Source of the DNA: Candidatus Thioglobus vulcanius
GTDB taxonomy: Bacteria; Pseudomonadota; Gammaproteobacteria; PS1; Pseudothioglobaceae
DNA length: 64,000 bases
Direction: 5' to 3'
Assembly: GCA_910595855.1 (NCBI GenBank)
Contig: CAJVCJ010000021.1
Location: forward strand, 13,534 to 77,533
The position numbers and the translations under genes were made by a program. Shown in pieces: positions 1 through 45,310 of this stretch. Below the pieces are notes generated by a model. It ran no database searches. It worked only from the letters and a program-made list of their open reading frames with translations, and was not told the origin of the DNA. Position 1 is the first letter of the stretch. Each line of letters begins with the position of its first letter.

Positions 1-1711
1 ACATTCTTGGTACCACTGAGTAAGTGCCATCTTTTTGGATATTACCGTGCGAACGCTCATTAATAAATCGTGATTGCACATCATCTTCATAATCAGGGTT
101 GGCAGCCAATAAATAATAATTTACTTCAGGTCGGCACACGTGACAACCATCTGCATTTTCCCAATCCATCTTGGCAAACACCTCAAATACTGTGTCAAAA
201 TCATTCTTAAAAATGAAATCATGAACTTCTTGCTTAGTGTGTTCAGTACAAGCGCAAATTGGCTTTTTCTTTGGTGATTCTGAATATTCTCCACCTAGGG
301 TTGTGGCAATTAATTGCTCAACCAAACCCGTACAAGAGCCACATGAGCTTGATGCTTTGGTATGAGCCTGCACATCTTCTAAAGTAAAAAGATTTTTCTC
401 ATTAATGGCGCAAACAATGTCGCCCTTGGACACACCATTACAGCCACAAATCTCTGCTGAATCGTCCATGGCAGCAACCATATCAACTGCACCATGGCCA
501 GAATCTCCAACATGCGCCTGACCAAATAATAATCGGTCACGCATATCTGTAATGTTATTTTCATCTTTCATTAATTGAAAATACCACGACCCGTCAATCG
601 TATCGCCGTACAATACTGAGCCAATAATCATGTCATTCTCAATTACAATTTTTTTGTAAACGCCTTTAGCGACATCTTGAAAAACTAAATTTTCACTTTT
701 TTCTGTACCTTTAAAATTACCTGCAGAGAATAAATCAATACCGGTTACCTTCAATTTAGTAGAGGTGACTGAACCTTCATACATACCAATACCGTATTCT
801 GCTAAATGATTGGCGCAAACCTTAGCTTGTTCAAACAATGGCGCGACTAATCCATAACACAAGCCACGATGCTGAATACACTCGCCAACCGCATAAATAC
901 TTGGATCATAGGTTTGCATCGTATCATCTACAACAATACCACGTTCACAATGAATTCCAGATTCTTGTGCCAATGCAAAGTTTGGTCGAATACCCACTGC
1001 CATAACTACCAAATCTGCATTTAAAGAAGTCCCGTCTACAAACTCAATACTCTTTACTCGGCCACTATCATTGGAGTTTAATTTTTGAGTTTGTGCCTCC
1101 AGTTTAAAGGTCATACCTCTCTCTCTAAGAGAGGTTAATAACATTTGTGAAGCAGTAGAATCAAGTTGCATTTCCATAAGGTCTGTAAGTAAATGTACAA
1201 CAGTAACATTCATACCTTGCTTCATTAAACCGTTAGCCGCTTCTAGACCTAACAAACCACCGCCAATCACAATAGCATTTTTGTGATTCTTGGCAGCATC
1301 AATCATTTGATCAACATCAGCAATATCTCTAAAACCAATCACGCCATCTAAATCATGGCCTTCAATTGGTAGGATAAATGGATTAGATCCGGTTGCAATC
1401 AATAACTTGTCATAATCATAACTATTACCCTTATCATCAACCACAGTTTTACTGCTACGGTTGATACTAGTAATCGTACTATCAGTATGCAGATTAATGT
1501 CGTTGTCTTTATACCAATCTAGATCATTAATCATGATCTCATCGATAGTTTTTTCATCTGCCAGTACTGGAGATAACATGATACGATTGTAATTGCCATA
1601 TGGCTCACTACCAAATACGGTAATATCAAATTTTTCTTCGGTAATTTTAAAAAGCTCCTCCAGGGTTCTTACACCTGCCATACCATTTCCGATTAATACT
1701 ATCTTTTTCAT
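1..1711 (-). CDS. nirB: NAD(P)H-dependent assimilatory nitrite reductase large subunit (partial; C-terminus lies beyond the left edge)
   Basis: Absent from the ORF track because its stop is outside the window. Reverse-strand reading from ATG 1711-1709 (SD GGAG upstream) gives MKKIVLIGNGMAGVRTLEEL (Rossmann GxGxxG). Further on come LIATGSNP, AVGECIQHRG and the BFD-like Cys motifs CGCNGVSKG and CGSCTG. No minus-strand stop-bounded ORF interrupts 565-1711. Confidence 0.9.
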   Translation of the reverse strand, partial: MKKIVLIGNGMAGVRTLEELFKITEEKFDITVFGSEPYGNYNRIMLSPVLADEKTIDEIMINDLDWYKDNDINLHTDSTITSINRSSKTVVDDKGNSYDYDKLLIATGSNPFILPIEGHDLDGVIGFRDIADVDQMIDAAKNHKNAIVIGGGLLGLEAANGLMKQGMNVTVVHLLTDLMEMQLDSTASQMLLTSLRERGMTFKLEAQTQKLNSNDSGRVKSIEFVDGTSLNADLVVMAVGIRPNFALAQESGIHCERGIVVDDTMQTYDPSIYAVGECIQHRGLCYGLVAPLFEQAKVCANHLAEYGIGMYEGSVTSTKLKVTGIDLFSAGNFKGTEKSENLVFQDVAKGVYKKIVIENDMIIGSVLYGDTIDGSWYFQLMKDENNITDMRDRLLFGQAHVGDSGHGAVDMVAAMDDSAEICGCNGVSKGDIVCAINEKNLFTLEDVQAHTKASSSCGSCTGLVEQLIATTLGGEYSESPKKKPICACTEHTKQEVHDFIFKNDFDTVFEVFAKMDWENADGCHVCRPEVNYYLLAANPDYEDDVQSRFINERSHGNIQKDGTYSVVPRM

Positions 1712-1719
1712 AACTTCTC

Positions 1720-3420
1720 CTAACGCACTAATAACAATAACAAGAAGATATTAATTGCAAAAGATAGTGCGATTAATATCTTATATTTCTTCAACACAAG
1801 TCCTGAATCCTTAATGACTGATGCTGTTTTTAAAAAAGTTGAATTTGGGTGTTCCAAATCAAACAAAAATTCACTTAAAACTTCATAACGACTTTTGTAA
1901 TCTAGATTACAAGCCTTATGAACTGCACCATCTATCCAGATGGGTACATGAGGGTCATGTTTTAAAATTGATTCATAAGTCAACTGTGACAATTTCTTTG
2001 TGGTTAAACTTTTGTCTAGCTTATTCTGATACGGCAACTTACCCGCAAACATTTCATAAACAATCGCACCTAGGCTAAACTGATCGGACGCTTGCGCAAC
2101 CTTCTCACTTATAATCACTTCTGGTGCCGTATAACCTTGGGTACCTTGATTACCAACCGCTGCCACTGAACTGACTAACTCTGCAACGCCTGCAATTCTT
2201 GCCGAACCAAAATCTATTAATTTTACCTGTCCAATCTTATTAATCATAATATTTTCAGGTTTTAAGTCACAATGCAACATCTCTTGACGATGAAAAGCTC
2301 TAAGCCCTTGGATTATTTGCTTTACTAAACCAATAACCACTTTAATATCAGGCTGCGGATTATCTTGCATCCATTGTCTGAGTGTTTGGCCTTTGACATA
2401 CTCCATTGCATAGGCCAAAAATTTACTTTCATCACTACTGCTGTGAATTTTAACCACATTGGCACATTGAATTCTTTGTCCAACCCATTCTTCATACATA
2501 AAATGTTTTAAATATTGAGCATCATCTTCAAAATTAACTGAGGGTGTTTTCAATATTACCATTTCATTCGTTTGACTATCTTTAGCAAGATAGACTTGGG
2601 TTCTATTACTTGCATGTATTAAAGATTCAACTTCAAAGCCATTAATCTTCATGCCTTTCTCTAAATCTGGCGGAATCGGTCTTTTGGTTAACTTATCAAA
2701 TGTCTCACTTAAATTCTCATCTGGCAATTGATCTACTTTACAAATAATGGCTGAAATATTATCCTGAGAATCTGCTGCTAATGCTTTCTCTGACAGTTCA
2801 TCAGCAGAAACTCCATCACCAAGCAGTGAGCAAAGTGTTTTGTCAGTTAGATAATCATGCACACCATCAGTTGTCATTAAAAACACATCGTCTAATTTAA
2901 CTTTAGTCGTGTAATAATCGACATGAACCTTGAGATCAAAGCCCATAGCCCTGGCTAAATAGGTTTTTTCTTTGGCAAGATGTAACACGTGATCTTGTGT
3001 TAATTGCTCCAACTTGCCATCTCTATATCGATAAATACGGCTATCACCCACATGAAATATATGTGCCGTGTTAGATTTAACAATCAATACACTCATCGTC
3101 GAAAGCATAGAAGAATGTTCTTGCTCTCTGATCGACTGTGAATGCAGCCAATTATTCAAAGCTGAGATAACCTTACTAGCTGAATGCTCTGTACTCCACG
3201 AATCTGGCGTAGAATAATAATCACTCAAGAAGCTCTGCACACAACATGCGCTGGCATCCTTAGCTTTTTCTGAGGCACTGACACCATCTGCTATAACCGC
3301 TACTATGCCTTTATTATCCAACACCGGAGAGCTTGGAATGTAAAAACCGCAAGCATCTTGATTCTCAGGCTTAATTCCTGCCTGAGTATTGGATTGAAAA
3401 CTAAGTTTGAGTTTTTCCAT
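1720..3420 (-). CDS. Fusion protein: PP2C-type Ser/Thr phosphatase + Hanks-type Ser/Thr kinase + C-terminal membrane anchor
   Basis: 566 aa. PP2C motifs: ENQDAC, ADGVSAS, HVGDSR, TTDGVHD, QDNISAI. Kinase motifs: VILK, HCDLKPEN, DFG, GYTAPE, SDQFSLG. The last ~20 aa are hydrophobic (ILIALSFAINIFLLLLLV). The TAG stop overlaps the nirB SD. Confidence 0.85.
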   Translation of the reverse strand: MEKLKLSFQSNTQAGIKPENQDACGFYIPSSPVLDNKGIVAVIADGVSASEKAKDASACCVQSFLSDYYSTPDSWSTEHSASKVISALNNWLHSQSIREQEHSSMLSTMSVLIVKSNTAHIFHVGDSRIYRYRDGKLEQLTQDHVLHLAKEKTYLARAMGFDLKVHVDYYTTKVKLDDVFLMTTDGVHDYLTDKTLCSLLGDGVSADELSEKALAADSQDNISAIICKVDQLPDENLSETFDKLTKRPIPPDLEKGMKINGFEVESLIHASNRTQVYLAKDSQTNEMVILKTPSVNFEDDAQYLKHFMYEEWVGQRIQCANVVKIHSSSDESKFLAYAMEYVKGQTLRQWMQDNPQPDIKVVIGLVKQIIQGLRAFHRQEMLHCDLKPENIMINKIGQVKLIDFGSARIAGVAELVSSVAAVGNQGTQGYTAPEVIISEKVAQASDQFSLGAIVYEMFAGKLPYQNKLDKSLTTKKLSQLTYESILKHDPHVPIWIDGAVHKACNLDYKSRYEVLSEFLFDLEHPNSTFLKTASVIKDSGLVLKKYKILIALSFAINIFLLLLLVR

Positions 3421-3423
3421 TGA

Positions 3424-3448
3424 TTAATTTAATTTAATTTAATTTAAT
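3424..3448. repeat. Perfect pentanucleotide microsatellite (TTAAT)x5 across the narK stop codon and the spacer to the kinase-fusion start
   Basis: Read directly: tgaTTAATTTAATTTAATTTAATTTAATga. On the coding strand ATT AAA TTA AAT TAA appears twice (IKLN-stop, IKLN-stop). Confidence 0.95.
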
Positions 3449-4903
3449 GATCTGAATTGTGCCATCATCCAACACCTCTGTCATTTGATTCTTTGGCTCA
3501 TCCAAAAACAGTGCAATCAGCACTAATACACAAACAGAAACAATACCAATCAACATAAAGAACTGATCATATTCTACTAATGAGTTTACCGTTAAAAACA
3601 TTACCGATCCAGCAGCGCCAAAAGCGCCAACCATGCCAGCAATCTGTCCAGTTAAGCGTCTTTGAATCAATGGCACCATAGCAAATACTGCGCCCGATCC
3701 TGCTTGAGAAAAAATACCACCTAAAATTGTTAAACCCACGACCCAGCTAATAGACCAAGTGTCTTTATCAACATTACCAAGTATTAGGAAACTAATTGCA
3801 ATCCCGGTAAAAGCAATCATCAAAGTTAGCTTACGGCCAATCTTATCACTGATCCAGCCACCACCAGGTCGAGCAAATAAGTTAATAAACGGGTATGCAC
3901 CAGCCAAAAGCGCTGCAGTAATCTTAGGTAGCTCAAACCAATCAACATAAAACATAGCTAGAATTGATACCACTGCCAATTCGGTGCCAAAAGTTGCCAT
4001 ATAAGCCCAATCAAGAATGGCTACTTGCTTAAAGTGGTAACGACTTTGCTCGGGCACTGGTTTTTTGATAAATTCGGCATTAACATGCCAAATTTTAACC
4101 AATTGCAACACAAAGACAGCAACTAATATAAAGTACACTAACCAGGTAGTTTCCAATGAAATCATGCCAGCTTTAGCCGGTGATAATTTCCAAGTTAATA
4201 ATGCCAGAGCCAAATAAAGTGGGATATTCATCAGAATGTACAAAATTAAATCACCTCGACTGGTCACTTCCATTGCGCCTGATTTCTTTGGCTTAAAATA
4301 AGTAGATCCTTTAGGTGTGTTACTAACATTGAAATAATAAAACACACCATAGCTCATCGCAATAAGACTGGCAATTGTAATCGCATATCTCCACCCATCA
4401 ACATCTCCAAAACTTGCAGCTAGAAATGGCAAAGTAAACATAGCACCGGCAGAGCCAAAATTACCCCAGCCGCCATAAATACCTTGAGCAGTTCCTGTTT
4501 GTTTAGCTGGGAACCATTCTGAAATCATACGAATACCGACAACAAAACCAGCACCAATAAAACCAGCAAAGAATCTCATTAAAGCCAGCTGTTCATAGTT
4601 TTGCATCCAACTAAAGGCAATTGAGATCAGTCCACCCAAGATCAAAATCGACGAGAACATAATCTTCGGACCAAGTTTATCAACTAGCATTCCTACAACA
4701 ATCCTTGCAGGAATAGTAAGTCCAACATTTAATATTAACAAGACTTTTGCTTGTTGATCAGTAAGCTCTAAAGCTTCTTTGATAAACGGCATCATTGGCC
4801 CTAGACCCAGCCAAACAACAAAGGTCATGAAAAAGGCAAACCACGTTAAATGCAATATACGGTATTTACCTGTAAATGATAATATGTTTAACTTGTCTTC
4901 CAT
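3434..4903 (-). CDS. narK: Nitrate/nitrite transporter, MFS NNP (NarK/NasA) family, downstream paralog
   Basis: 489 aa polytopic membrane protein. NNP-type Gly-rich signatures GGWGNFGSAG and GMVGAFGAAG. ARPGGGWISDKIGRK loop. Lies in an operon with nirB. Confidence 0.85.
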   Translation of the reverse strand: MEDKLNILSFTGKYRILHLTWFAFFMTFVVWLGLGPMMPFIKEALELTDQQAKVLLILNVGLTIPARIVVGMLVDKLGPKIMFSSILILGGLISIAFSWMQNYEQLALMRFFAGFIGAGFVVGIRMISEWFPAKQTGTAQGIYGGWGNFGSAGAMFTLPFLAASFGDVDGWRYAITIASLIAMSYGVFYYFNVSNTPKGSTYFKPKKSGAMEVTSRGDLILYILMNIPLYLALALLTWKLSPAKAGMISLETTWLVYFILVAVFVLQLVKIWHVNAEFIKKPVPEQSRYHFKQVAILDWAYMATFGTELAVVSILAMFYVDWFELPKITAALLAGAYPFINLFARPGGGWISDKIGRKLTLMIAFTGIAISFLILGNVDKDTWSISWVVGLTILGGIFSQAGSGAVFAMVPLIQRRLTGQIAGMVGAFGAAGSVMFLTVNSLVEYDQFFMLIGIVSVCVLVLIALFLDEPKNQMTEVLDDGTIQIIKLN

Positions 4904-4925
4904 AACACTCCAAAAAAAATAAAAA

Positions 4926-6395
4926 TTAATTCAACTTAATAATTTCAACCGTGCCGTCATCTAGCACCTCTGTCATATGACCCTTAGGTTCATCTAAGAA
5001 TAGAACAATTAATGCCAATACAACAACTGACACAATACCAATAATCATAAAGAACTCATCGTACTCTACAAAGGTATTGACGGTTAAAAACATCACCGCG
5101 CCAACATTACCAAATGCGCCGACCATGCCAGCAATTTGCCCAGTCAATCGCCTCTGAATCAAAGGCACCATGGCAAAAATTGCACCTGAGCCAGCCTTAG
5201 AGAAAATACCACCTAAAATTGTCAATCCAACCACCCAAGTGATAGACCAAGTGTCTTTATCAACATTACCTAGCAATAAAAAACTAACTGCGATGCCAGA
5301 AAAAGTAATCATCAAGGTTAGCTTACGGCCAATCTTATCACTGATCCAGCCACCACCAGGTCGGGCAAATAAATTAATAAACGGATATACACCTGCTAAG
5401 AGTGCAGCCGTAATTTTAGGCAATTCAAACCAATCCACATAAAACATAGCCAACACAGAAACTACCGCTAGCTCTGTACCAAAAGTAACCAAATAAGCCC
5501 AGTCTAAGATAGCCACTTGCTTAAATTTATAACGGTGTTGTTCAGGTACAGGATTTTTAATAATTTCCGCATTCACATGCCAAATCTTGGCTAACTGCAT
5601 ACCGAACAATACTACTAGCGTAGTATATATTGCCCATGAAGTTTCTAATGAAATCAGCCCCATTTTAGTCGGAGAAAGTTTCCAGGTTAGTAATGCTAAG
5701 GCCAGATACAATGGAATATTCATGACAATATAAAGCACTAAATCGCCCATGGTGGAAACCTCCATAGCACCTGATTTTTTTGGTTTGAAGTAAGTAGAGC
5801 CCTTAGGTGTATTAGAGACACTGAAATAATAAATCACACCATAAACAATCGCCAATATACTAGCCATAGTAATAGCAATTCTCCAGCCATCATCGCCACC
5901 AAAACCTACCGCAATAAAAGGTAAAGTTGCCGCCGCACCGGCAGATCCAAAGTTACCCCAGCCGCCATAAATACCTTGAGCAGTTCCTGTTTGTTTAGCT
6001 GGGAACCATTCTGAAATCATACGAATACCGACAACAAAACCTGCACCAATAAAGCCTGCCAAGAAACGCATCATCGCTAATTGATCGTAAGTTTGCATCC
6101 AACTAAAAGCGATTGAAATCAGCCCGCCCAATATCAAAATCGAGGAAAACATAATCTTCGGGCCGAGTTTATCAACCAACATTCCAACAATAATTCTCGA
6201 GGGAATGGTCATTGCCACATTAAGAATAAGTAGAACCTTTGCCTGCTGCTCTGTGAGAGCTAACGCCTCTTGGATAAACGGCATCATTGGACCTAGACCT
6301 AGCCAAACCACAAAGGTCATGAAAAAGGCAAACCACGTCATGTGTAGGACACGGTACTTGCCTTTAAATGAAAATATATTTAACTTATCTTCCAT
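4926..6395 (-). CDS. narK: Nitrate/nitrite transporter, MFS NNP family, upstream paralog
   Basis: The track ORF extends to 6473. The ATG at 6395 (MEDKLNIFSF) aligns residue-for-residue with the paralog start and has GGAG 8 nt upstream. This gives 489 aa, collinear with the paralog. Confidence 0.85.
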   Translation of the reverse strand: MEDKLNIFSFKGKYRVLHMTWFAFFMTFVVWLGLGPMMPFIQEALALTEQQAKVLLILNVAMTIPSRIIVGMLVDKLGPKIMFSSILILGGLISIAFSWMQTYDQLAMMRFLAGFIGAGFVVGIRMISEWFPAKQTGTAQGIYGGWGNFGSAGAAATLPFIAVGFGGDDGWRIAITMASILAIVYGVIYYFSVSNTPKGSTYFKPKKSGAMEVSTMGDLVLYIVMNIPLYLALALLTWKLSPTKMGLISLETSWAIYTTLVVLFGMQLAKIWHVNAEIIKNPVPEQHRYKFKQVAILDWAYLVTFGTELAVVSVLAMFYVDWFELPKITAALLAGVYPFINLFARPGGGWISDKIGRKLTLMITFSGIAVSFLLLGNVDKDTWSITWVVGLTILGGIFSKAGSGAIFAMVPLIQRRLTGQIAGMVGAFGNVGAVMFLTVNTFVEYDEFFMIIGIVSVVVLALIVLFLDEPKGHMTEVLDDGTVEIIKLN

Positions 6396-6410
6396 GAAAT
6401 ACTCCAAAAT

Positions 6411-6441
6411 TATAAAAAGTTTGTAAAAGTTTATAAAAGTT
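6411..6441 (-). repeat. Three tandem 10-11 bp repeats (T[A/G]TAAAAGTT) immediately upstream of the narK SD
   Basis: Plus strand: tataaaaagtt / tgtaaaagtt / tataaaagtt. Coding strand: AACTTTTATA AACTTTTACA AACTTTTTATA, followed by ATTTTGGAGTATTTCATG. Confidence 0.8.
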
Positions 6442-6709
6442 ACAACATTAGTAACAATTCTCAAAAACTTCAATGTATAAATTTGGCTTCAATGCCAATA
6501 TCCGCAGAAAATAATTTACTACAGACGAAAAAAAACGCTTACCTAGCTTTTAATCTATAAAAAACCAGTGTAAACGTCAATGTTTATTTACTATCCATCG
6601 TTGGATAATGTGCGAGTATTATATCAAAAATTCTTACTTTATATTATTAATTTATAATATTTAGTGTAAATATTGATAAAAAAACACTACAAAAAGTTAA
6701 AATAAACCC

Positions 6710-7159
6710 ATGGATAAAATAATCATTCAACCACAGGACTTTGATTTAACCACTGAGGCCAGCCTTACCAAGGGCAGTGACAGCAATATTGGCGCTGTGG
6801 TCAGTTTTGTGGGTACGGTACGTGATTTAGACAATGAATCCATCACCAAGATGACGCTTGAACACTATCCGCAGATGACTGAAAAGGCCCTTACATCAAT
6901 CGCCAATCAAGCACATAAGCGCTGGCAGTTAGGCAATATCACTATTATTCATCGTATCGGCGATCTTTCAGTCAATGATCAAATTGTATTGGTAATTACC
7001 ACTAGTAAACACAGGAAATCAGCCTTTGAATCTTGTGAATTCATTATGGATTATCTAAAAACTCAGGCGCCTTTTTGGAAAAAAGAGCATACTCAAAGCT
7101 CTAGTAAATGGGTTGAATCTAAAATAACAGACGAAGATAAAAGTGACAGTTGGGATTAA
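6710..7159 (+). CDS. moaE: Molybdopterin synthase catalytic subunit
   Basis: 149 aa. VSFVGTVRD, LEHYPQM, IIHRIGDL and APFWKKE are typical of MoaE. Confidence 0.9.
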   Translation: MDKIIIQPQDFDLTTEASLTKGSDSNIGAVVSFVGTVRDLDNESITKMTLEHYPQMTEKALTSIANQAHKRWQLGNITIIHRIGDLSVNDQIVLVITTSKHRKSAFESCEFIMDYLKTQAPFWKKEHTQSSSKWVESKITDEDKSDSWD

Positions 7160-7731
7160 ATCTTATCGAAATCCTGCGGATTGTTCAAATTAATAAAAAC
7201 TTTAGGCTGATCTGAGAAATTCACCTTTTGAAAATTATTCTGCTCAATCCACAAGCCCAATTTACGCTCACCAGAGTCCAAAAAGACTAATAAATTATCT
7301 TTTAAGTTGGTTTTTATTAATGCGAAGGTTGGGTGGATGTGTGAACCATCATCAGCCACACATATGTTCACATTCTTATCTACCATACACTGAATTAATC
7401 GATTAATCACCACTTCATTAACCAATGGACTATCACAAGGTAGGATTAATAAATACGGCGTACTGACCACTGACATCGCCTTAGCAATGCCGGCTAATGG
7501 CCCTTGAAAATCGGTCAATTCATCAACAATCACTTCGCCATATAGTTGATACTCCTCAATATTTCGATTAGCACTAATCAATAATCGACCAACCTTACCA
7601 TCAACCACATCAGCCACGTAACTAATCAGCGGCTTATCATTTAGCAATATCAGACCTTTATCATCACCTTTCATTCGGCTTGAGCGTCCTCCAGAGAGGA
7701 TAACAGCAGTAATTTTGTTTTTATCAATCAT
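7156..7731 (-). CDS. mobA: Molybdenum cofactor guanylyltransferase
   Basis: 191 aa. N-terminal ITAVILSGGRSSRMKGDDKGL nucleotidyltransferase motif. Convergent with moaE, overlapping it by 4 nt. Confidence 0.85.
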   Translation of the reverse strand: MIDKNKITAVILSGGRSSRMKGDDKGLILLNDKPLISYVADVVDGKVGRLLISANRNIEEYQLYGEVIVDELTDFQGPLAGIAKAMSVVSTPYLLILPCDSPLVNEVVINRLIQCMVDKNVNICVADDGSHIHPTFALIKTNLKDNLLVFLDSGERKLGLWIEQNNFQKVNFSDQPKVFINLNNPQDFDKI

Positions 7732-7827
7732 TTTGTTAGGTCTATTGTTGCTTATCAGTTATAACGATATTAGATTATATTAGCATTCTATGATACAATC
7801 AATCCATCAGTTTGAGTTATATTTATT

Positions 7828-9093
7828 ATGAAAAATCAAGAAGTTGATTGCGGTTGCGATCAAGCACAACAGCCTTTATTGGCAATGGATGAAGCCCTAG
7901 ATTTTCTGCTTAATGCAGTAGTGATCAACACCAATACACATCTTGTATCGCTTGATAATTCACTTTATCAGGTACTGGCACAAGATGTATGTTCAACCAT
8001 TAATGTACCTGATTTTGATAATTCTGCGATGGATGGTTACGCCATCAACCTTAAAGAAAGCCAAGTTAATACTCCAGGCGGGGTTAATTTTAAAGTTACT
8101 GATCGAATCCCCGCAGGTAGCATAGGTAACACACTCCCCCCTGGGTGTGCTGCTCGCATATTTACTGGTGCACCAATCCCACAAGGTGCAAATACGGTGA
8201 TCATGCAAGAAGAGTGTGAAGTATCTGAAGATGACAATAGTATCGAAACTTGGCGCCCTCTATCACTGAGTGAAAACATTCGTCCGATGGGTAACGACAT
8301 TCAAACCAATGATGTAATTTTACGAGCTGGAATGCAACTGAAACCGCAAGATGTCGCTCTGGCAGCCTCTGTTGGTGTGGCTGAACTGGAAGTCTTTAAA
8401 AAACTTAAGGTTGGTGTATTTTTTACTGGAAATGAATTGGTTGAGCCTGGCAATGCTTTAAATATGGGTGAAATCTACAACTCTAATCGTTATGCACTGG
8501 TTGCCCTACTCAAACAACTAAATTGTGAAGTAATCAATCTAGGCAATATCAAAGATAACCTAGATTCAACTTGTAAGGCTTTAGAAACTTTGGCATCCGA
8601 TTGCGACTTAATTATGACTACTGGCGGCGTTTCTGTTGGCGAAGAGGATCATGTTAAGCCTGCAGTAGAAGAGCTTGGTAAGTTATCTTTATGGCGCATT
8701 AAAATGAAACCAGGTAAGCCATTGGCTTTTGGCAATGTTGGTAAAGCTGCCTTTATCGGCTTGCCCGGTAACCCGGTGTCAGCTATGGTGACGTTCTTTT
8801 TGTTTGCACGACCTTTTATTAAAAAAATGCAAGGTGTTAGTCAATATAAAAATCAAACTACTCAAGTGCAGACCAACTTTGATTGGCGCAGGCCAAGGCC
8901 ACGACGTGAGTTTGTAAGAGTAAAATTAGACCATTCCACTGTCCCAGCTTCAGCCAACCTCTATCCTAAACAGGGTTCAGATGTATTAAGTTCTGTGGTT
9001 TGGGCTGATGGTTTAATAGAAATACCTGAAAATAGCACATTCACTCAAGGAGAGGTGCTAAATTATTATTCATTAACTGAGTTAACCCTATGA
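7828..9093 (+). CDS. moeA: Molybdopterin molybdenumtransferase
   Basis: 421 aa. [25 protein letters not shown] and MKPGKP motifs. Confidence 0.9.
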
Positions 9094-9569
9094 GCAAACT
9101 AACCCATATTAACGATAAAGGTGATGCGCAAATGGTCGATGTGTCTGACAAGGCTATTACCACCCGTATTGCTGTAGCAAAATCAGTGGTACTCATGCAG
9201 CCATCGACCTTAGAGCTGATTACTTCGGGTCAACACAAAAAAGGTGATGTTTTGGCTGTGGCACGTATCGCTGGCATTCAAGCAGCTAAAAAGTGTGCCG
9301 ACCTTATTCCATTGTGCCACCCTCTAATGCTAACCAAGGTTAGTGTGGAATTAACTGCTAACACTAAGGATTCAAGTATTGAGATTATTGCCACCACTAA
9401 ACTCGCAGGTAAGACCGGAGTAGAAATGGAGGCGCTTACTGCAGCTAGCGTGGCAGCGCTCACTGTATACGACATGTGTAAGGCAGTTGATCGCGGTATG
9501 GTGATTAGCCAAACCCAAGTACTTGAAAAATCAGGTGGAAAGTCTGGAGATTGGAAAGTGCAGGCATGA
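9090..9569 (+). CDS. moaC: Cyclic pyranopterin monophosphate synthase accessory protein
   Basis: 159 aa. [40 protein letters not shown] and [10 protein letters not shown]. Confidence 0.9.
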
Positions 9570-10561
9570 AACAATTAACCGATCCATTTAATCGAAATAT
9601 TACCTATCTCAGGGTATCAGTAACGGATCATTGTAACTATCGTTGTCACTATTGTCGTGACGAAGATCATGTGACAGACACAACCAGGAATGATATATTA
9701 TCATACGAAGAGCTGGCTAGAATTGTACGATTGTTTGCTGAATTAGGAATTACTAAAGTCAGGTTAACAGGTGGTGAGCCACTTTTACGCAAAGATATTC
9801 TAAAGCTAGCAACCATGCTTGGTGAAATTCCTGGCATTGATGACATCCCTCTTTCAACCAATGCACATTTATTATCGCCAATCGCTAATCAACTACAAAA
9901 AGCCGGCATCAATCGGGTTAATATTTCTATTGATTCACTCAACCAAGATCGATTTGAACAGATTACTCGTGGCGGAGATTTAGATAAAGTCATTCAAGGC
10001 ATTGACAGCGCTATCGAATCAGGCATGAATCCTATTAAGTTAAATATGGTGGTGATGCGCGGTGTTAATGACGATGAGATCGAAGCCATGATTGACTTTG
10101 CCATTGAACGTAAAATTGACATTCGCTTTATCGAAACCATGCCAATTGGTGCAGCAGGAATTGACGCAGTAGATCATCACTATAGTGAAGCTGAAATCGT
10201 AAAAAGAATACGTGCGCACTTACCAGATCGATTGATTACAGTCAAATCTAAACAAACAGCAGGGCCTGCAAAATCTTACCTAATCAATAACACCGAAACA
10301 TCAGTAGGTACAATTTCTGCAGTTTCTAATAATTTTTGCAGCAGTTGTAACCGTGTCAGGCTAACCGCCAAAGGGCGGTTAATCTTATGCCTTGGTCAGG
10401 AAAATTCAATTTCATTGCGTGATGCGATTAGATCAAATATGAATGATAATGACATTAAGACTATGATTATTAATGCCATTACTCACAAACCTGAAAAACA
10501 TGAATTTGACACCAATATGAATAATATCAATAACGTCCAAATGGTGGAAATTGGCGGATGA
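9566..10561 (+). CDS. moaA: GTP 3',8-cyclase (radical SAM)
   Basis: CNYRCHYC radical-SAM cluster motif and C-terminal [13 protein letters not shown]. The track start at 9551 is TTG. ATG 9566 forms an ATGA overlap with the moaC stop. Confidence 0.9.
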
Positions 10562-10794
10562 ACATTTTATACTTTGCCTCACTAAAAGAATCTCTTAATA
10601 TTTCTAATGAAGAGATACTAGCAACCCCTGATATGACTGTAATAGAGCTAAGATCACTATTAATTAATCAACATGGAGAGCAGCATTTTCCAAGCAATAT
10701 TCTATGCGCTGTAAACCAGGTAATTGCCAACAACTCAACCCAATTAAACAATGACGATGAGGTGGCTTTTTATCCACCTGTTACTGGCGGATAA
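10558..10794 (+). CDS. moaD: Molybdopterin synthase sulfur-carrier subunit
   Basis: 78 aa, ubiquitin-like size, ends ...YPPVTGG. Start overlaps the moaA stop. Confidence 0.85.
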   Translation: MNILYFASLKESLNISNEEILATPDMTVIELRSLLINQHGEQHFPSNILCAVNQVIANNSTQLNNDDEVAFYPPVTGG

Positions 10795-10834
10795 TCCAAC
10801 TATTAAGCAAGCCTAATAATAACTTTATTTTTTA

Positions 10835-11170
10835 TTAGCCAGTACTCCAACCTCTGGGACGTCTCATACCCGATATTTTGCATGCTTGTTTGACGTAACC
10901 ATAAGGAAACATGGTGAATAATTTAGTTTTAGCAACTTTTTTATCAACACCAAAATCACTCACCATTTGTTTGGTTGTATGTCGTACGTCAGGTGCAACA
11001 CCATTATCATCGTAAAAATTACGCATAAAATTAAACACCGTCCAATAATCATCATTCAATTCAATATTTTCTGAATTGGCCAACTCAAGTGCCACATCAT
11101 GATCCCAATCTTCAGGATGAATTAAATACCCTTCCTCGTCTAATTCAATGTCTCGTTCATTAATTTTCAT
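10835..11170 (-). CDS. DsrC/TusE-family protein lacking the penultimate C-terminal cysteine
   Basis: 111 aa. Family hallmarks: EGYLIHPEDWD, YWTVFNFMRNFY and FPYGYVKQACKISGM. The C-terminus reads RRPRGWSTG instead of the ...TGCV-type arm. Confidence 0.75.
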   Translation of the reverse strand: MKINERDIELDEEGYLIHPEDWDHDVALELANSENIELNDDYWTVFNFMRNFYDDNGVAPDVRHTTKQMVSDFGVDKKVAKTKLFTMFPYGYVKQACKISGMRRPRGWSTG

Positions 11171-11484
11171 CTTAAAGTAAACTCCTTTTTGATATGGTTA
11201 CCATTAGCCTAAAAAAACTTAGATAACCAAAGCTTCATTAATAAAAAAAATTATATCAGCCTTTATCTTGAGTATCTTTACAATCAACTTTATATTCAGT
11301 TGTAAATCTCAACCTCTCTATTTATAGATTATCAAAGCAGGCATTGATAATTAAAAAAAATTTTAATTCACTCAACCTATCTCAAAAAAAACTCTCATTT
11401 AAGATGTTATGACTTATATTTTTTCGAATTCAGCAAAAACTTCAGGTTAAAATTAATCACAATTTATTAAATAGACGTTAGAAA

Positions 11485-12015
11485 ATGAATACTACAAAAA
11501 TAAAGGTTGGATTTATTACAATATCAGATCGAGCTGCTCGTGGTGAATACGAAGATATTGGTGGACCTGCCATGCAAGACTGGATCAAGAGTGCCATACT
11601 TTCTCCTTATGAGGTTGAGCACATTATTATTGAAGATGAGCAAGCTTTGATCGAACAAACTATGATTAGCTTTGCTGACGACCTGCAGTGTAATTTAATT
11701 CTAACCACCGGTGGCACAGGACCAACCACACGCGACGTTACCCCTGAAGCAACGCATGCTGTATGTGAACGAATCTTTGATGGCTTTGCCGAGCAAATGC
11801 GTAATGTTAGTTTACGCACGGTCCCAACCGCTATTTTGTCACGTCAAACAGCTGGCACACGAGGATCAAGCTTAATCATCAATCTACCGGGAAAACCCGC
11901 AGCAATAGCTGTATGCTTAGGTGCAGTATTCCTAGCTGTACCCAAATGTTTAGAATTATTAGACAATTCCAATATTCAAATAGATCTTAATTTTGTCGAG
12001 CAAGAATTTGAATAA
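11485..12015 (+). CDS. mog: Molybdopterin adenylyltransferase (Mog/MoaB family)
   Basis: 176 aa. ISDRAARGEYEDIGGPA, LILTTGGTGPTTRDVTPEAT and TAILSRQ closely track E. coli MogA. Confidence 0.85.
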   Translation: MNTTKIKVGFITISDRAARGEYEDIGGPAMQDWIKSAILSPYEVEHIIIEDEQALIEQTMISFADDLQCNLILTTGGTGPTTRDVTPEATHAVCERIFDGFAEQMRNVSLRTVPTAILSRQTAGTRGSSLIINLPGKPAAIAVCLGAVFLAVPKCLELLDNSNIQIDLNFVEQEFE

Positions 12016-15443: not shown

Positions 15444-17789
15444 TTAGGCAGTCAAGCTGGCAAACAACAGTGGTAGCTGTTCAGGAAGTTTTTCAACATT
15501 CTCAATAACCGTATAGTTGTTTTCACCAAAAATTCTCTTAACATAACTATCAGCATTTGGATCCAGAGTTAAACAGTACGTTAAGACACCCGTTGAATAA
15601 AGCTCTTCTACAGCCTTCTTGGTATCAAAACGCAAGTGTTGCGGATCTGTCTCATCAATATCTGCCGGTTCACCATCAGTTACTAATAAGATCAACTTAC
15701 GCTTTTCTTGTTGTTTATGCAAATGAGCACCTGCATGCCTTAATGCAGCACCCATTCGAGTGGATAAGCCACCCTGCATGCCAGCAAGACGCGCCTTGGC
15801 TTCATCATCAAAATGCTGATTGAAATCTTTAAAACGGAAATATTGAACGTCATGACGTCCATCGGAGGCAAAACCATGCAGTGCAAATGGATCGCCAATA
15901 CCTTCCATGGCAACAGATACCAAAGTAGCTGCTTCTCGAGTGAGCTGTAAAATGGTTTTATCACTATCACCCACATACTCGTTAGTTGATTCAGAAAGAT
16001 CAAGCAAAACAACAATAGACAAATCTCTAGTATTAAGCACATTACGCATAGTGATGCGTGGATTTGGCTGATCACCCATGCGTATAGATATCATAGCATC
16101 AATCGCTGCATTAATATCAACCTCGTCACCATCCTCCAGGCCACGCTTACGCTGTACACCTGCAGGTGCTAATAAATCAATAATTTGTCGAATTTTATGG
16201 GCGATCGGCTTATGTACTTGCAGGATATCTTCAATATCCTCCGGGTTACCTTTGATAGGACGGCGCTCGTAAATGGTCGCCCAATCTGGACGGTGTAACT
16301 GAATTTGATAATCCCACTCATGATAATGATAAGGATCTGAAATTGGCTCTGTACCCCAAGCATCATTAAATGAGTGAGCAGTATCTGTTAAGTCATCTTC
16401 ATAAAAGCGCATTAAATCTTTACAAGTCCATACGACTTGAGCATCATCACCAGCAAGCTCACAATCAACCTCGTGTGCCATCATTAATGGACTTACTTCG
16501 AATCGTTGTTGAGCCTGACTAGCAGCGATATATTCATCACCCATATCCCAATTAACATCTTCAAAATGCCAGATAATACGATTGTCATCTCTATAGTCAA
16601 CTCGGTAACGCTCTAAAATTCTTAAACTAGGCACCGCCTTACGGCCAGAGAATAAGTTATAAAGCTCAATACCCATTAACCAAGCAAAACGATTATCATC
16701 TTTATTTTCTTCGATATTGGCGTGGAATTTAGCAGCGAACTCATTTAGTTGAGCATCACTACCTTGGGCATCTTTATCAAGTAACTGCAAAGCAAAACCC
16801 TCAAGAATTTCCATGGTTTTATGCTCTGCTGGCTCTTCATGCTCCAGCAACATTAAAGAACGCCATAATTTCTTTAGTCCTGGGAAATCTTGTGCCGCTT
16901 TATATTCAACACGTGCGTCCTCAAGAAGGCCAACAAAAAACATTTGTGCTGGACTAAGTTGATCTGCGGACATTGATTTGTCGGTATACATCATATGTGC
17001 CGCCATATGCGCGACTGTAGCACGGTAGATTTCCAAACCTTCAATACCTTCAATATCATCAAGTGCATCAGGAACATACATGATACGAGTATCCACGTAT
17101 GGTCTAAAATCTGTGTATTCAGCCCCTGTTGGGCGAATAAAGAAATCACGACCCCATAAAGCACGTAGATAGAAGTTTAACTTTCGCTGAACTCTAACAA
17201 ACAAAACACCACGCCTTTCACGCTCCAGCATGGCACGTGAATCTTGAGATTCTAATGAGAAGTAAGAGGTAAGATTTTTAAAGTCTCTTCGATACGCTTT
17301 GGCACCAAATTGAGCCCAGCGACGTAAACCACTTAACGTTAATTTAGAGAGTAATTGATCAATGTTAATTAACATTGGACGAATACCTCTAGAGGCTGTC
17401 GATGCCAATTGGTGGATTAACGTTAGATATCCACGTACAAGCTGTGCATCACCTAAATGGCGAGCAACCAACGGCAAAGTGGAAAGCAATAACGAGATAA
17501 CTTCACCTGAGGTCAAAGATGAAGCCTTCATTGCAGCAGTAACACAGTCAGGAATGATATCCTCACCACATTCTTTTGCAATTTGCGGCATAACTTCTAG
17601 ATAAGTAATTACCAAGTCATTACCTCTGCCCAAACCGCACAATGACTTAGCACCATCTAAATAATCTTTTAATCCTGCTGGTGATATAACACGAGCAGCA
17701 TCCTGAAAAGTTGCATCCAAAACACCTCTTACTTCAGGTGCAATTTTTTCTAGAAACTCTGCATAATCTTCAAGTACAACTTTTGACAT
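15444..17789 (-). CDS. cbbO: RuBisCO activase adaptor subunit CbbO (C-terminal VWA domain)
   Basis: 781 aa downstream of cbbQ. VWA MIDAS motif VVLLDLSESTN, then LILLVTDGEPADID. Confidence 0.9.
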   Translation of the reverse strand: MSKVVLEDYAEFLEKIAPEVRGVLDATFQDAARVISPAGLKDYLDGAKSLCGLGRGNDLVITYLEVMPQIAKECGEDIIPDCVTAAMKASSLTSGEVISLLLSTLPLVARHLGDAQLVRGYLTLIHQLASTASRGIRPMLINIDQLLSKLTLSGLRRWAQFGAKAYRRDFKNLTSYFSLESQDSRAMLERERRGVLFVRVQRKLNFYLRALWGRDFFIRPTGAEYTDFRPYVDTRIMYVPDALDDIEGIEGLEIYRATVAHMAAHMMYTDKSMSADQLSPAQMFFVGLLEDARVEYKAAQDFPGLKKLWRSLMLLEHEEPAEHKTMEILEGFALQLLDKDAQGSDAQLNEFAAKFHANIEENKDDNRFAWLMGIELYNLFSGRKAVPSLRILERYRVDYRDDNRIIWHFEDVNWDMGDEYIAASQAQQRFEVSPLMMAHEVDCELAGDDAQVVWTCKDLMRFYEDDLTDTAHSFNDAWGTEPISDPYHYHEWDYQIQLHRPDWATIYERRPIKGNPEDIEDILQVHKPIAHKIRQIIDLLAPAGVQRKRGLEDGDEVDINAAIDAMISIRMGDQPNPRITMRNVLNTRDLSIVVLLDLSESTNEYVGDSDKTILQLTREAATLVSVAMEGIGDPFALHGFASDGRHDVQYFRFKDFNQHFDDEAKARLAGMQGGLSTRMGAALRHAGAHLHKQQEKRKLILLVTDGEPADIDETDPQHLRFDTKKAVEELYSTGVLTYCLTLDPNADSYVKRIFGENNYTVIENVEKLPEQLPLLFASLTA

Positions 17790-17886
17790 AATAATCTACC
17801 TTGATTAATCACTTCAAACTAAGCCCATTAGATTTTAAAATTAATCTATCTAATAAACTCTCTTATTAACAATAAGTGGCCTTTAT

Positions 17887-18702
17887 TTAGCCAAGAAACG
17901 TTTGTACAGCAGCTTGAAGTGTATCACGCATATCAGGATCATCCGTTAATGGAGTGATCATTGTCATACTACATGCCGATTCAGCATCAACACCTTGTGC
18001 GATTAACTGACCTGCGTATACCAATAAACGAGTAGAGATACCCTCATCAAGACCATGACCCTTAAGGTTACGAGCACGATGTGCAATTTGCACCAACTTT
18101 TCAGCGGTAGCTTGATCAACACCAGACTCTTTAGTGACAATCGCCACCTCCAACTCAGTTTCAGGGTAATCAAAATCCATTCCACCAAAACGTTGCTTAG
18201 TAGATTGCTTAAGATCTTTCATCAAACTTTGGTAACCAGGGTTATATGAAATAACTAATTGGAAATCAGGATGAGCCTTAACAAGCTCACCTTTTTTATC
18301 AAGTGGTAACTCACGACGGTGGTCTGTTAATGGGTGAATAACAACTGTAGTATCCTGACGTGCTTCAACAATTTCATCCAAATAACAAATTGCACCAATT
18401 CGAGCTGCAGTTGTTAAGGGTCCGTCCTGCCATTTTGTGCCGTCTTTGTCTAAAAGAAAACGACCAACCAAATCAGAGGCTGTCATGTCTTCGTTACAAG
18501 CAACACTAATTAAAGGTCGACCTAATTTCCAAGCCATATACTCAACAAAACGAGATTTACCACAACCTGTTGGACCTTTAATCATCATTGGCATACGAAC
18601 ATCGTATGCTGATTCATAAAGTTCTACTTCATTCGTTACCGATTCATAATACGGCTCATCTTTAATGATATATTGATTTGGATCTACTTTTATTTCAGAC
18701 AT
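17887..18702 (-). CDS. cbbQ: RuBisCO activase MoxR-type AAA+ ATPase CbbQ
   Basis: 271 aa. Walker A GPTGCGKS, Walker [11 protein letters not shown]. Strong SD GGAAGGG. Confidence 0.92.
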
Positions 18703-18718
18703 AATTTCCCTTCCTTAT

Positions 18719-19033
18719 TTATTCATCTTCATCATCTGTTTCATGCTCACCTGACCAGCCTGAGTTCTTAGCAAACTGAATAGCATTATCATGAATACGT
18801 TGATGACGTTCTCGCAACTCTGGTGGTAAATAACCCACCATACAGCCATATTTATCCCATTCAGCATTGACTTTTTGCAATAATGCGTCAATTCCACCTA
18901 GGTTCCAACCTTCACAGGTCTCTGTTTCTTCGATCAGGCCAAAAACCCAAGCGTCTCTAATTATCTTACCAATAGTGGTCATACCACCGTGGATTTCGTT
19001 GTTAATTCCAACATATGTTTTAGGTTTATTCAT
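18719..19033 (-). CDS. Hypothetical 104-aa acidic-tailed protein between cbbS and cbbQ
   Basis: ORF ends 16 nt before the cbbQ ATG. No known motif. C-terminus EHETDDEDE. Weak SD at 19033. The alternative start M18 (18982) is preceded by GGTGGT. Confidence 0.55.
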   Translation of the reverse strand: MNKPKTYVGINNEIHGGMTTIGKIIRDAWVFGLIEETETCEGWNLGGIDALLQKVNAEWDKYGCMVGYLPPELRERHQRIHDNAIQFAKNSGWSGEHETDDEDE

Positions 19034-19050
19034 AGGCTTATTTTATAGCA

Positions 19051-19086
19051 AAAAAAAACCCCAACTACAAGAGTTGGGGTTTTTTT
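19051..19086 (-). terminator. Strong rho-independent hairpin immediately after cbbS
   Basis: A8-CCCCAACT-acaag-AGTTGGGG-T7. On the minus strand the stem is followed by a T8 run. Confidence 0.85.
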
Positions 19087-19105
19087 GCTTAGAACTTAGT
19101 AACTA

Positions 19106-19453
19106 TTAAACCGTTTTGCCACGGTAAATAACCATTGAAGTACCAGCACATTGTGCGAAGTTGTCTAAACCTAACAAACGAACGTGATTGTCCGGATGTG
19201 CAGTATGACAATTTTCAATTTCTTGAAGAATCGCGTCAACGTCTGTTTCACCAAACATTGGTAGTTTCCACATGTACCAAAATGAACCAGCAGCGTGCTG
19301 TGGCTCAGTGTGTTCGATACTTGGATTCCAACCTTTATCAATAATATATTGAATCTGCACACGCATTTGCTCTGCAGTTAATGTTGGTAGGTATGAGAAA
19401 GTCTCAAATTTACGACTGTCAGTGTTACCTAAACTTGATTGATAATCTTGCAT
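19106..19453 (-). CDS. cbbS: RuBisCO small subunit (form I)
   Basis: 115 aa. [21 protein letters not shown] and WYMWKLPMF. Confidence 0.95.
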
Positions 19454-19516
19454 ATTAATGCTCCTTATATTTTAGTTAATTAACAAGATGTCAAAAAACA
19501 CCTTGTTAGTGACACT

Positions 19517-20935: not shown

Positions 20936-20986
20936 TATTTTAGCTCCTTATTAAAAGAACCACCATCATACAATATCTAACATTTA

Positions 20987-21010
20987 ATGTAAAATAATAT
21001 TTATTTACAT
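20987..21010. promoter_or_regulatory. Inverted repeat ATGTAAA-N10-TTTACAT in the 92-bp cbbR/cbbL divergent region (candidate CbbR operator)
   Basis: Perfect 7-bp arms read directly, flanked by the direct repeat TAACATTTA at 20978-20986 and 21016-21024. LysR regulators bind dyads in such regions. Confidence 0.45.
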
Positions 21011-21027
21011 AATAATAACATTTACTT

Positions 21028-45205: not shown

Positions 45206-45212
45206 AACCAAA

Positions 45213-45283
45213 CTGCCAAGGAGCGTTGCGTTGAAATTAGTTTCAATCAGGCTTGGCGATCAGAATCATAAAACGACGCTCAT
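45213..45283 (+). promoter_or_regulatory. SAH riboswitch (S-adenosylhomocysteine-sensing leader of ahcY)
   Basis: P1 GCCAAG/CUUGGC. Conserved core AGGAGCGUUGCG. P2 UUGAAA-uuag-UUUCAA. Then CAGGCU, and a downstream AACGACGCUCA whose CGCUC pairs with GAGCG as a pseudoknot. This matches the recalled consensus, and the element sits in front of ahcY, its classic context. Confidence 0.85.
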
Positions 45284-45310
45284 TTTTTTAAATTTTCTAA
45301 AGGAGAAAAA

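Follow-up and report, generated by a model that had tools for sequence, protein, structure and literature searches.

A predicted tail-anchored PP2C phosphatase/Hanks-type kinase encoded beside nitrate and nitrite transporters in SUP05 bacteria and other proteobacteria

The kinase/phosphatase gene and its product

The stretch of DNA analyzed here (64,000 nucleotides of contig CAJVCJ010000021.1 from Candidatus Thioglobus vulcanius, assembly GCA_910595855.1, positions 13,534 to 77,533 of the forward strand; hereafter the window) opens with a minus-strand operon in which two tandem genes for NarK-type nitrate/nitrite transporters are followed by a gene for a putative kinase/phosphatase and then by nirB. 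The kinase/phosphatase gene is the subject of this report. A preliminary description, made from the sequence by itself, had presented it as a single 566-amino acid open reading frame (ORF) uniting a PP2C phosphatase, a Ser/Thr kinase, and one C-terminal transmembrane helix, and Pfam, NCBIfam, and hydropathy analysis all agree with this composition. The ORF is intact and begins with ATG. The features of the locus are as follows, in coordinates of the window:

1720..3420, minus strand: gene for a predicted tail-anchored bifunctional PP2C phosphatase/Hanks-type Ser/Thr kinase, 566 aa (ORF, Pfam, NCBIfam, homologs)
2731..3420, minus strand: PP2C (PPM) phosphatase domain, residues 1-230 (Pfam, NCBIfam, alignment to Stp1 structures 5F1M/6IHW, model compared with PstP)
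1846..2640, minus strand: Ser/Thr kinase domain, residues 261-525 (Pfam, NCBIfam, alignments, model compared with PknB)
1726..1785, minus strand: predicted C-terminal transmembrane tail anchor, residues 546-565, YKILIALSFAINIFLLLLLV (hydropathy, AlphaFold2 helix, family tails)
1720-1722, minus strand: stop codon of the kinase/phosphatase gene
3421..3433, minus strand: 13-nt spacer of A and T only between the narK2 stop codon and the kinase/phosphatase ATG (in relatives, gaps of 0-13 nt or an overlap)
1712..1719, minus strand: 8-nt spacer ahead of the nirB ATG, where the TAG stop codon plus GAG forms the nirB Shine-Dalgarno sequence
3434..4903, minus strand: narK2, NarK/NNP-family nitrate/nitrite MFS transporter, 489 aa, the upstream partner (TIGR00886)
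4926..6395, minus strand: narK1, tandem paralog, with its likely ATG at 6395 (the mechanically called ORF reaches a TTG at 6473)
1..1711, minus strand: nirB, NAD(P)H nitrite reductase large subunit, first 570 aa, cut by the start of the window (TIGR02374, 640 bits)

The sequence bears out the tight junctions that had been described on both sides of the gene. The narK2 TAA is followed by 13 nt (ATTAAATTAATCA) and then directly by the kinase/phosphatase ATG, with no Shine-Dalgarno sequence, and translational coupling between narK2 and the kinase/phosphatase is therefore likely. At the other end, the TAG stop codon is followed by GAGAAGTT and the nirB ATG, such that TAGGAG overlaps the nirB ribosome-binding site.

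Searches with PP2C/PPM and Pkinase hidden Markov models matched both domains. In Pfam, PP2C_2 (PF13672) covers residues 20-195 (E=1.3e-17) and Pkinase (PF00069) covers residues 274-497 (E=2.3e-42). In NCBIfam, the Stp1-type PP2C model (NF033484) matches residues 17-227 with 119 bits against an equivalog cut-off of 230, while the PknB-type kinase model (NF033483) matches residues 274-527, i.e. its kinase domain only, with a score of 164 against a cut-off of 450. Both scores are far below the equivalog cut-offs and the protein is accordingly neither Stp1 nor a PASTA kinase; neither a mid-chain transmembrane helix nor extracellular PASTA repeats were found by NCBIfam or hydropathy. All of the PP2C and kinase motifs quoted in the preliminary description were found, and in alignments they match the catalytic residues of Staphylococcus aureus Stp1 and PknB/Stk1. 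Alignment to Stp1 revealed that the PP2C metal ligands D22, D45-G46, D126, D185-G186, and D220-N221 are all retained, and the presence of PP2C motifs 1 (xxD), 2 (DG), 8 (DG), and 11 (DN) places the domain in the PPM/PP2C family by residues. Compared with S. aureus PknB/Stk1 and Mycobacterium tuberculosis PknB, the kinase domain retains K291, E310, H383-C-D385-L-K387-P-E-N390, D403-F-G405, and A432-P-E434. We then examined conservation in three alignments, two of 14 and 66 sequences at 45-91% identity and one of 18 sequences at 27-40% identity. The catalytic residues of both domains are invariant in the first two, the PP2C residues D22, D45-G46, D126, D185-G186, and D220-N221 are invariant in all three, and the kinase K, E, D, N, DxG, and PE are still invariant at 27-40% identity. 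Because both domains score well and their catalytic residues are invariant down to 27% identity, these alignments argue for selection on both the kinase and the phosphatase activities.

The sole hydrophobic stretch of the protein spans residues 546-565 (Kyte-Doolittle 19-mer maximum of 2.62), in agreement with the single C-terminal helix of the preliminary description. Since nothing but Arg566 and the stop codon follows this segment, it is predicted to be a tail anchor that leaves both catalytic domains in the cytoplasm. A tail of like kind occurs in 103 of the 122 full-length family cluster representatives, and in most members the anchor is preceded by a juxtamembrane motif, PL(I/L)ER(N/D)PxxFW(Q/K), which is absent from the SUP05 proteins. 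We had also considered Asn557 within the transmembrane helix as evidence of helix docking, but dropped it because this residue is invariant only in the close subfamily and not family-wide. An AlphaFold2 model built from the 66-sequence alignment (mean pLDDT of 81) predicts a long helix at residues 527-565. The modelled kinase resembles PknB (TMt 0.85) and the modelled phosphatase resembles PstP (TMt 0.76), while structure comparison of the model found no solved structure holding both domains in one chain. In the model, the kinase C-lobe runs directly into helix 527-565, the end of which is the membrane segment, and this would leave no room for a sensor domain. Indeed, the protein has no extracytoplasmic domain and no recognizable sensor domain.

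The kinase departs from the canonical pattern in its ATP-binding loop. The glycine-rich GxGxxG loop is replaced by IHASNRTQV, which has no glycine and aligns to LGGGGMSTV of S. aureus PknB. The preliminary description had called this loop degenerate; the canonical glycines are indeed gone, but the departure goes further than that, as the loop is glycine-free, with the pattern (I/L)HxSxR(S/T)xVY, in every member examined. Thus, it is a family trait. It also raises the question of whether only one of the two activities is real, either because a pseudokinase serves as a scaffold to dock the PP2C or because the PP2C merely resets kinase autophosphorylation and shares no substrate with the kinase. 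Besides the loop, the low confidence of the activation loop and the PP2C flap in the AlphaFold2 model leaves room for such an arrangement. However, K291, E310, D385, N390, DFG, and APE do not vary even at 27% identity, a constancy that would be unusual in a pseudokinase, and the PP2C metal ligands are all invariant as well. We consider a protein with a single working activity to be improbable. The SUP05 proteins are also non-RD kinases (HCD), with R, Q, or G at that position in other members.

A protein family paired with nitrogen-anion transporters

The closest proteins, at 66-91% identity over the full length, come from the SUP05 clade, Candidatus Thioglobus, Thiodubiliella, Ruthia, and Bathymodiolus symbionts. 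The family extends far beyond these. Homologs at E≤1e-10 number >5000, full-length two-domain relatives were identified in at least 566 species genomes when one genome was scanned for each species, and a profile-free search of 1.84 billion representatives yielded >100 clusters, at 50% identity, of full-length two-domain proteins of ~560-600 aa. Given these homologs and the number of species with full-length two-domain relatives, the gene is, judged by comparative sequence data, a feature far beyond chance. Members unite PP2C, kinase, and C-terminal transmembrane tail in one protein of ~560-600 aa and are found in Marinobacter, Acinetobacter, Glaciecola, Devosia, and Thioclava, among others. 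In databases they are named "bifunctional protein-serine/threonine kinase/phosphatase" (NCBI), and some records read "nitrite transporter-associated Ser/Thr kinase", a name that already points to a neighboring transporter gene. PA1782 of Pseudomonas aeruginosa is a putative further member. In the literature, PA1782 appears only in a list of three Ser/Thr kinases (PMC8560001). The gene order in Pseudomonas sp. UW4 is nasST-nasA-ppkB-nasDEC-cobA, in which ppkB is a Ser/Thr kinase gene immediately downstream of the nitrate transporter gene, and the genome paper of 2013 likened ppkB to transporter phosphorylation in Arabidopsis and Hansenula (PMC3596284). The suggestion of phospho-regulation in the preliminary description is therefore not new, as it restates that of the UW4 genome paper (PMC3596284). 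The ppkB family (for UW4, by the description in that paper; PMC3596284) has the same length, domain order, and position after a nitrate/nitrite transporter gene as the window protein. Nothing essential separates the latter from the annotated family, and the SUP05 lineage is set apart by its duplicated narK, nirB directly downstream, the HCD sequence, and the missing juxtamembrane motif. By alignment and architecture, the SUP05 protein belongs to a large, already annotated proteobacterial family that is defined by annotation only. The full-text literature searched, which takes in few subscription-journal papers, held no functional study of this family. What the present analysis adds is the transporter as the conserved partner, a sister clade paired with FNT channels, the tail anchor and glycine-less loop as family-wide traits, and the lack of a recurrent third partner.

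To survey gene neighborhoods, we examined the best 80 relatives from the at least 566 genomes (44-91% identity). In 73 of the 76 loci with ≥1.5 kb of upstream sequence, the kinase gene is immediately preceded by a co-oriented narK, a frequency that, like those given below for FNT, stems from loci picked by similarity to two seed proteins and is not an unbiased census. The gaps between narK and the kinase gene in these 73 loci range from 0 to 445 nt, many being 0-7 nt. Thus, the gene is syntenic with a nitrate transporter gene, as the preliminary description had anticipated, and comparative genomics strongly favors a role tied to nitrate/nitrite uptake. The position of nirB was found to be far less constant. 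Of 77 narK-kinase loci, 10 have nirB downstream of the pair, 13 have it upstream, and 18 have it in divergent orientation; in 6 it lies elsewhere in the flank, and the flanks of the other 30 lack it. As nirB is variable or missing while narK is constant, the invariant element is the transporter-kinase pair and not nirB. The preliminary description had regarded the gene as hard-wired into a narK-narK-X-nirB operon; it is tightly embedded in this lineage, but elsewhere nirB varies and narK is single even in close relatives. On a Thioclava plasmid, the narK and kinase genes stand alone amid sugar-utilization genes.

In other SUP05, Bathymodiolus, and Ruthia lineages (L009-L024), the order is a nirB-like gene, narK, the kinase gene, and a gene for a 485-aa molybdopterin oxidoreductase. 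The nirB-like protein has 793 aa and is ~44% identical to NirB of the window type, and the narK-kinase pair is intact in this second form of the assimilation cluster. We rejected a respiratory narK-kinase-narG arrangement for these loci, since the gene before the pair encodes, by Pfam, a NirB-type reductase and the one after it a short molybdopterin enzyme of the assimilatory type. The tandem narK pair itself is found in the window and in one other locus (L025), whereas relatives at 89% identity (L001/L002) have a single narK, indicating that the duplication is recent and lineage-specific.

In Acinetobacter lwoffii and another lineage, the kinase gene directly follows a gene for a Form_Nir_trans (FNT, NirC-like) channel, not an MFS NarK. 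A metagenome scan seeded with six FNT-type sequences returned at least 573 loci, the best 80 of which were examined. Of the 67 loci with sufficient flanking sequence, 60 have the FNT gene immediately before the kinase gene, and in 3 more a cyanase gene lies in between. The FNT-type loci of our collection, from metagenomes and Acinetobacter, are L086, L087, and L089-L168. cynS is often located beside the FNT-kinase pair or inside it, a hint that the pair may serve the uptake of nitrite, cyanate, or both. One contig (L138) holds both a narK-kinase and an FNT-kinase pair. A neighbor-joining tree of 167 proteins groups the 68 that are FNT-paired in a single clade, and the nearest neighbor shares the partner type in 144 of 144 cases. 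By this tree, the partner type follows the kinase phylogeny and is clade-specific. Clustering of the neighboring ORFs of 165 loci recovered NarK at 77 of 85 and FNT at 68 of 80 loci, as well as NirB, NirD, NasA-like, CynS, MobA, and GlnA proteins, while no regulator or P-II gene recurs beside the pair in this clustering. From gene order and phylogeny, we conclude that the conserved unit is a predicted two-gene module of a nitrogen-anion transporter and a tail-anchored kinase/phosphatase.

These surveys also bear upon whether the adjacency has any meaning, as a general-purpose Ser/Thr kinase/phosphatase might simply be riding in nitrogen-assimilation operons. Three NarK-type loci (L027, L053, and L083) and a few FNT-type loci do lack an upstream transporter gene. 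However, the pairing is retained in the great majority of loci in both surveys, across Gamma- and Alphaproteobacteria and down to ~30% identity, the paired genes overlap or are nearly contiguous, and the partner type is clade-specific. We regard meaningless adjacency as very improbable.

A possible phospho-switch at the transporter

If the enzyme acts upon the transporter, its cytoplasmic loops and tails are the obvious places to look. The segments concerned in the window are the following:

4259..4318, minus strand: central cytoplasmic loop of NarK2, T196-S215, TPKGSTYFKPKKSGAMEVTS, a candidate phospho-acceptor region
5751..5810, minus strand: corresponding loop segment of NarK1, TPKGSTYFKPKKSGAMEVST

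The two NarK transporters are 84% identical to each other and score 304 bits against TIGR00886, just under its cut-off of 311.7. For narK1, the ATG at 6395, which has a GGAG Shine-Dalgarno sequence, is a more likely start than the TTG at 6473; narK1 would then encode 489 aa, like narK2. As the preliminary description had stated, translations and their alignment place TPKGSTYFKPKKSGAMEV(TS/ST) in both paralogs. Among the 73 kinase-paired NarKs, the loop N195-TPKGSTYFKPKK-S208 is ≥95% conserved, and S200/T201 and T214/S215 in the loop as well as T482 in the C-terminal tail are ≥90% Ser/Thr. From their conservation, the central loop and the C-terminal tail are candidate acceptor sites for phosphorylation. 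As to whether the loop is specific to kinase-paired NarKs, plasmid outgroups point both ways: the motif is absent from a respiratory NarK1 of Roseinatronobacter that is not paired with the kinase, but present in an unpaired NarK of Shewanella (see below). The Escherichia coli NarK and NarU structures were too distant to be informative, as the loop was left unaligned. Since one whole clade is paired with the unrelated FNT channel, a mechanism specific to the NarK loop, which the preliminary description had named as a possible target, fails as a general explanation.

The reading that we favor, and to which we give about even chances, is a reversible phospho-switch acting on, or together with, the co-encoded transporter to tune uptake post-translationally. 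The lack of a sensor domain, the purifying selection on both domains, the membrane tether, co-translation, and the clade-specific pairing would together point to an enzyme that acts at the inner membrane face beside the transporter. Such an enzyme, anchored in the inner membrane and facing the cytoplasm, would combine a PP2C phosphatase and an atypical Hanks-type kinase in one polypeptide and would be made in fixed proportion with the transporter encoded immediately upstream. Kinase and phosphatase would share one target in the cytoplasm, for which a cytoplasmic loop or tail of the transporter itself is the most plausible choice, and a cytoplasmic cue (e.g. nitrogen status or nitrite load) would set the balance between them, such that uptake could be tuned within seconds on top of transcriptional control. 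By analogy to AceK and sensor kinases, having the opposed activities on one chain may allow the phosphorylated fraction to be set by the cytoplasmic cue and not by enzyme amount. In proposing this, we infer that kinase and phosphatase are both active, that their substrate or partner is the transporter, and what the signal and the direction of its effect might be. In a stronger version, the family would be the missing post-translational switch with which proteobacteria (SUP05, methanotrophs, Pseudomonas, Marinobacter, and Acinetobacter among them) start and stop the uptake of nitrate, nitrite, and perhaps cyanate within seconds. The enzyme would dock in the membrane onto the co-translated transporter and phosphorylate it reversibly, and it would have been re-targeted once from NarK, an MFS carrier, to the unrelated FNT channel. 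This version we hold only tentatively and find rather doubtful.

Several points weigh against a switch at the transporter. With a nucleotide-binding loop that has no glycine at all, the kinase might lack activity. How the two domains are oriented to each other is unreliable in the model (pTM of 0.56), and we therefore drew nothing from it as to the position of the phosphatase with respect to the activation loop of the kinase. A NarK from a Shewanella plasmid retains the loop motif and has no kinase gene in its vicinity. The selection of loci by similarity to seeds qualifies the pairing frequencies, and the literature searched holds no biochemical or genetic evidence for the family. Finally, two structurally unrelated transporter folds would need different phospho-sites, and a shared soluble target or co-sensing fits the paired clades equally well.

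The last point leads to the main rival, in which the transporter is a co-sensor: the enzyme would read its flux or conformation through membrane contact and phosphorylate or dephosphorylate a soluble protein whose gene lies elsewhere. The target could be P-II, the nitrite/nitrate reductase, or a regulator (for instance an antiterminator or a transcription factor), and the enzyme would work much like a bifunctional sensor kinase in one protein. A common soluble target would accommodate the two transporter folds more easily. In a lineage at 57% identity (L004/L005), a P-II (GlnB/GlnK) gene at 8145-8489 lies directly before narK-kinase-nirBD, LuxR-type and Crp-type regulators follow the kinase gene in L003 and L088, and the attenuator-like element in the operon leader (see below) would imply a nitrate-responsive regulator somewhere. 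It is also known that the PP2C PphA acts on P-II, which controls nitrate uptake in cyanobacteria. In contrast, no regulator or P-II gene recurs beside the pair across the 165 loci, and in most loci the pair is by itself or accompanied by reductase genes alone. We dropped P-II as a general target, since it is adjacent in L004/L005 only and is not recurrent. Overall, co-sensing appears unlikely, yet less so than a pseudokinase or autoregulatory role or a meaningless adjacency.

A switch at the transporter would have partial counterparts in several known systems. The best per-domain matches are PknB-PstP of M. tuberculosis and Stk1-Stp1 of S. aureus (4EQM, E=1.3e-25; 5F1M/6IHW, ~4e-11), in which kinase and phosphatase act on common substrates, but as separate proteins. 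PknB and Stk1 further have a mid-chain transmembrane helix and extracellular PASTA sensors, whereas the window protein is a single, apparently tail-anchored chain with no extracellular part and a glycine-less loop. Eukaryotic nitrate transporters are phospho-regulated, as in NRT1.1 (Thr101, by CIPK23), NRT2.1 (C-terminal tail sites), and Hansenula Ynt1 (central loop). If our hypothesis holds, the likeness would lie in reversible Ser/Thr phosphorylation that sets uptake; NarK of the window is of the NNP/NRT2 superfamily type and has a central loop and C-terminal tail with conserved Ser/Thr, while the eukaryotic transporter kinases belong to an unrelated lineage and are not fused to a phosphatase. 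Control by P-II (AmtB-GlnK, or cyanobacterial P-II with the PP2C PphA on NrtABCD) serves the same purpose, a fast shut-off of nitrogen uptake, but does so by protein binding and not through a transporter-linked kinase, and no P-II gene lies in or near the window operon. Lastly, AceK, HprK/P, and bifunctional sensor kinases likewise have opposing activities on one protein, which can set the phosphorylated fraction of a target independent of enzyme amount. These proteins have other folds, with one active site or a histidine-kinase core, whereas two eukaryote-type domains are fused here.

Physiological work has long shown that ammonium quickly inhibits the uptake of nitrate by bacteria, and to our knowledge a molecular explanation is known only for cyanobacteria, via P-II. 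If correct, our reading would supply a concrete candidate for a fast nitrate-uptake switch in hundreds of proteobacterial species, including SUP05 bacteria (nitrogen and sulfur cycling in oxygen-minimum zones), vent mussel and clam symbionts, methanotrophs, and pseudomonads, and it would be one of the few bacterial examples of a transporter controlled by Ser/Thr phosphorylation. Experimentally, the family is tractable in Pseudomonas, Marinobacter, and Acinetobacter, and the transporter pairing indicates where to look first.

The narK1 leader and other features of the window

Upstream of narK1, a leader of ~230 nt (6396-6640, minus strand) is conserved among SUP05 relatives. It contains a terminator-like hairpin ~130 nt upstream of narK1, which was identified by leader alignment and consensus folding:

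6528..6578, minus strand: hairpin followed by U8, attenuator-like intrinsic terminator in the narK1 leader

The hairpin has a minimum free energy of -23.8 kcal/mol (z=-5.4) and one compensatory pair, the U8 tract follows it directly, and a smaller conserved hairpin (AUUAUCCA-ACGA-UGGAUAGU) precedes it. Taken together, the leader features suggest antitermination control of the operon by a factor that would be encoded outside the window. Under such attenuator control, the kinase/phosphatase would be an added layer of control and not a replacement. The preliminary description had remarked that no NasR, NasST, or ANTAR-type regulator is visible. None was found here either, as no NIT/ANTAR, NasR, or NasS/NasT gene was detected in the window by Pfam on part of the ORFs and by reading translations, but the argument is a weak one given the attenuator-like hairpin in the leader. 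The only regulators seen, with part of the ORFs scanned with hidden Markov models, are a LysR beside the RuBisCO genes and a Fur homolog. The leader hairpin has no Rfam match and no ANTAR-type dual hexaloop was identified in it. Scans of positions 1-7200 for sigma-70 promoters and terminators returned sites no more often than chance and missed the leader hairpin. Visual inspection of the narK1 leader ruled out a sigma-54 promoter, since the GG/GC spacing does not fit. Downstream of the leader terminator, at ~6455-6470 on the minus strand, is a palindrome, TTGGC-N6-GCCAA, which L025 and L001 share in part (TTGGT...GCCAA) and which might bind a protein or simply form a small hairpin.

Beyond the operon, molybdenum-cofactor genes (moaE, mobA, moeA, moaC, moaA, and mog-like; 6710-12015) flank the nitrate genes, as in L001/L002, and a DsrC-like gene (10835-11170; Pfam E=1.5e-31) lies amid them. 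An Rfam scan of the whole window produced one match, an S-adenosylhomocysteine (SAH) riboswitch (RF01057) at 45212-45288 on the plus strand (46.9 bits), located directly upstream of an S-adenosylhomocysteine hydrolase ORF (45311-46681) and after a metK-like ORF (44056-45189). A carbon-fixation cluster spans 15444-21912 and was read by eye from translations as encoding RuBisCO large-subunit-like (19517-20935), CbbQ-like (17887-18702), and CbbO-like (15444-17789) proteins, together with a divergent LysR regulator (21028-21912) that was confirmed by Pfam. A RuBisCO small-subunit gene too short for the ORF cut-off probably lies in the 0.8-kb gap at 18702-19517.

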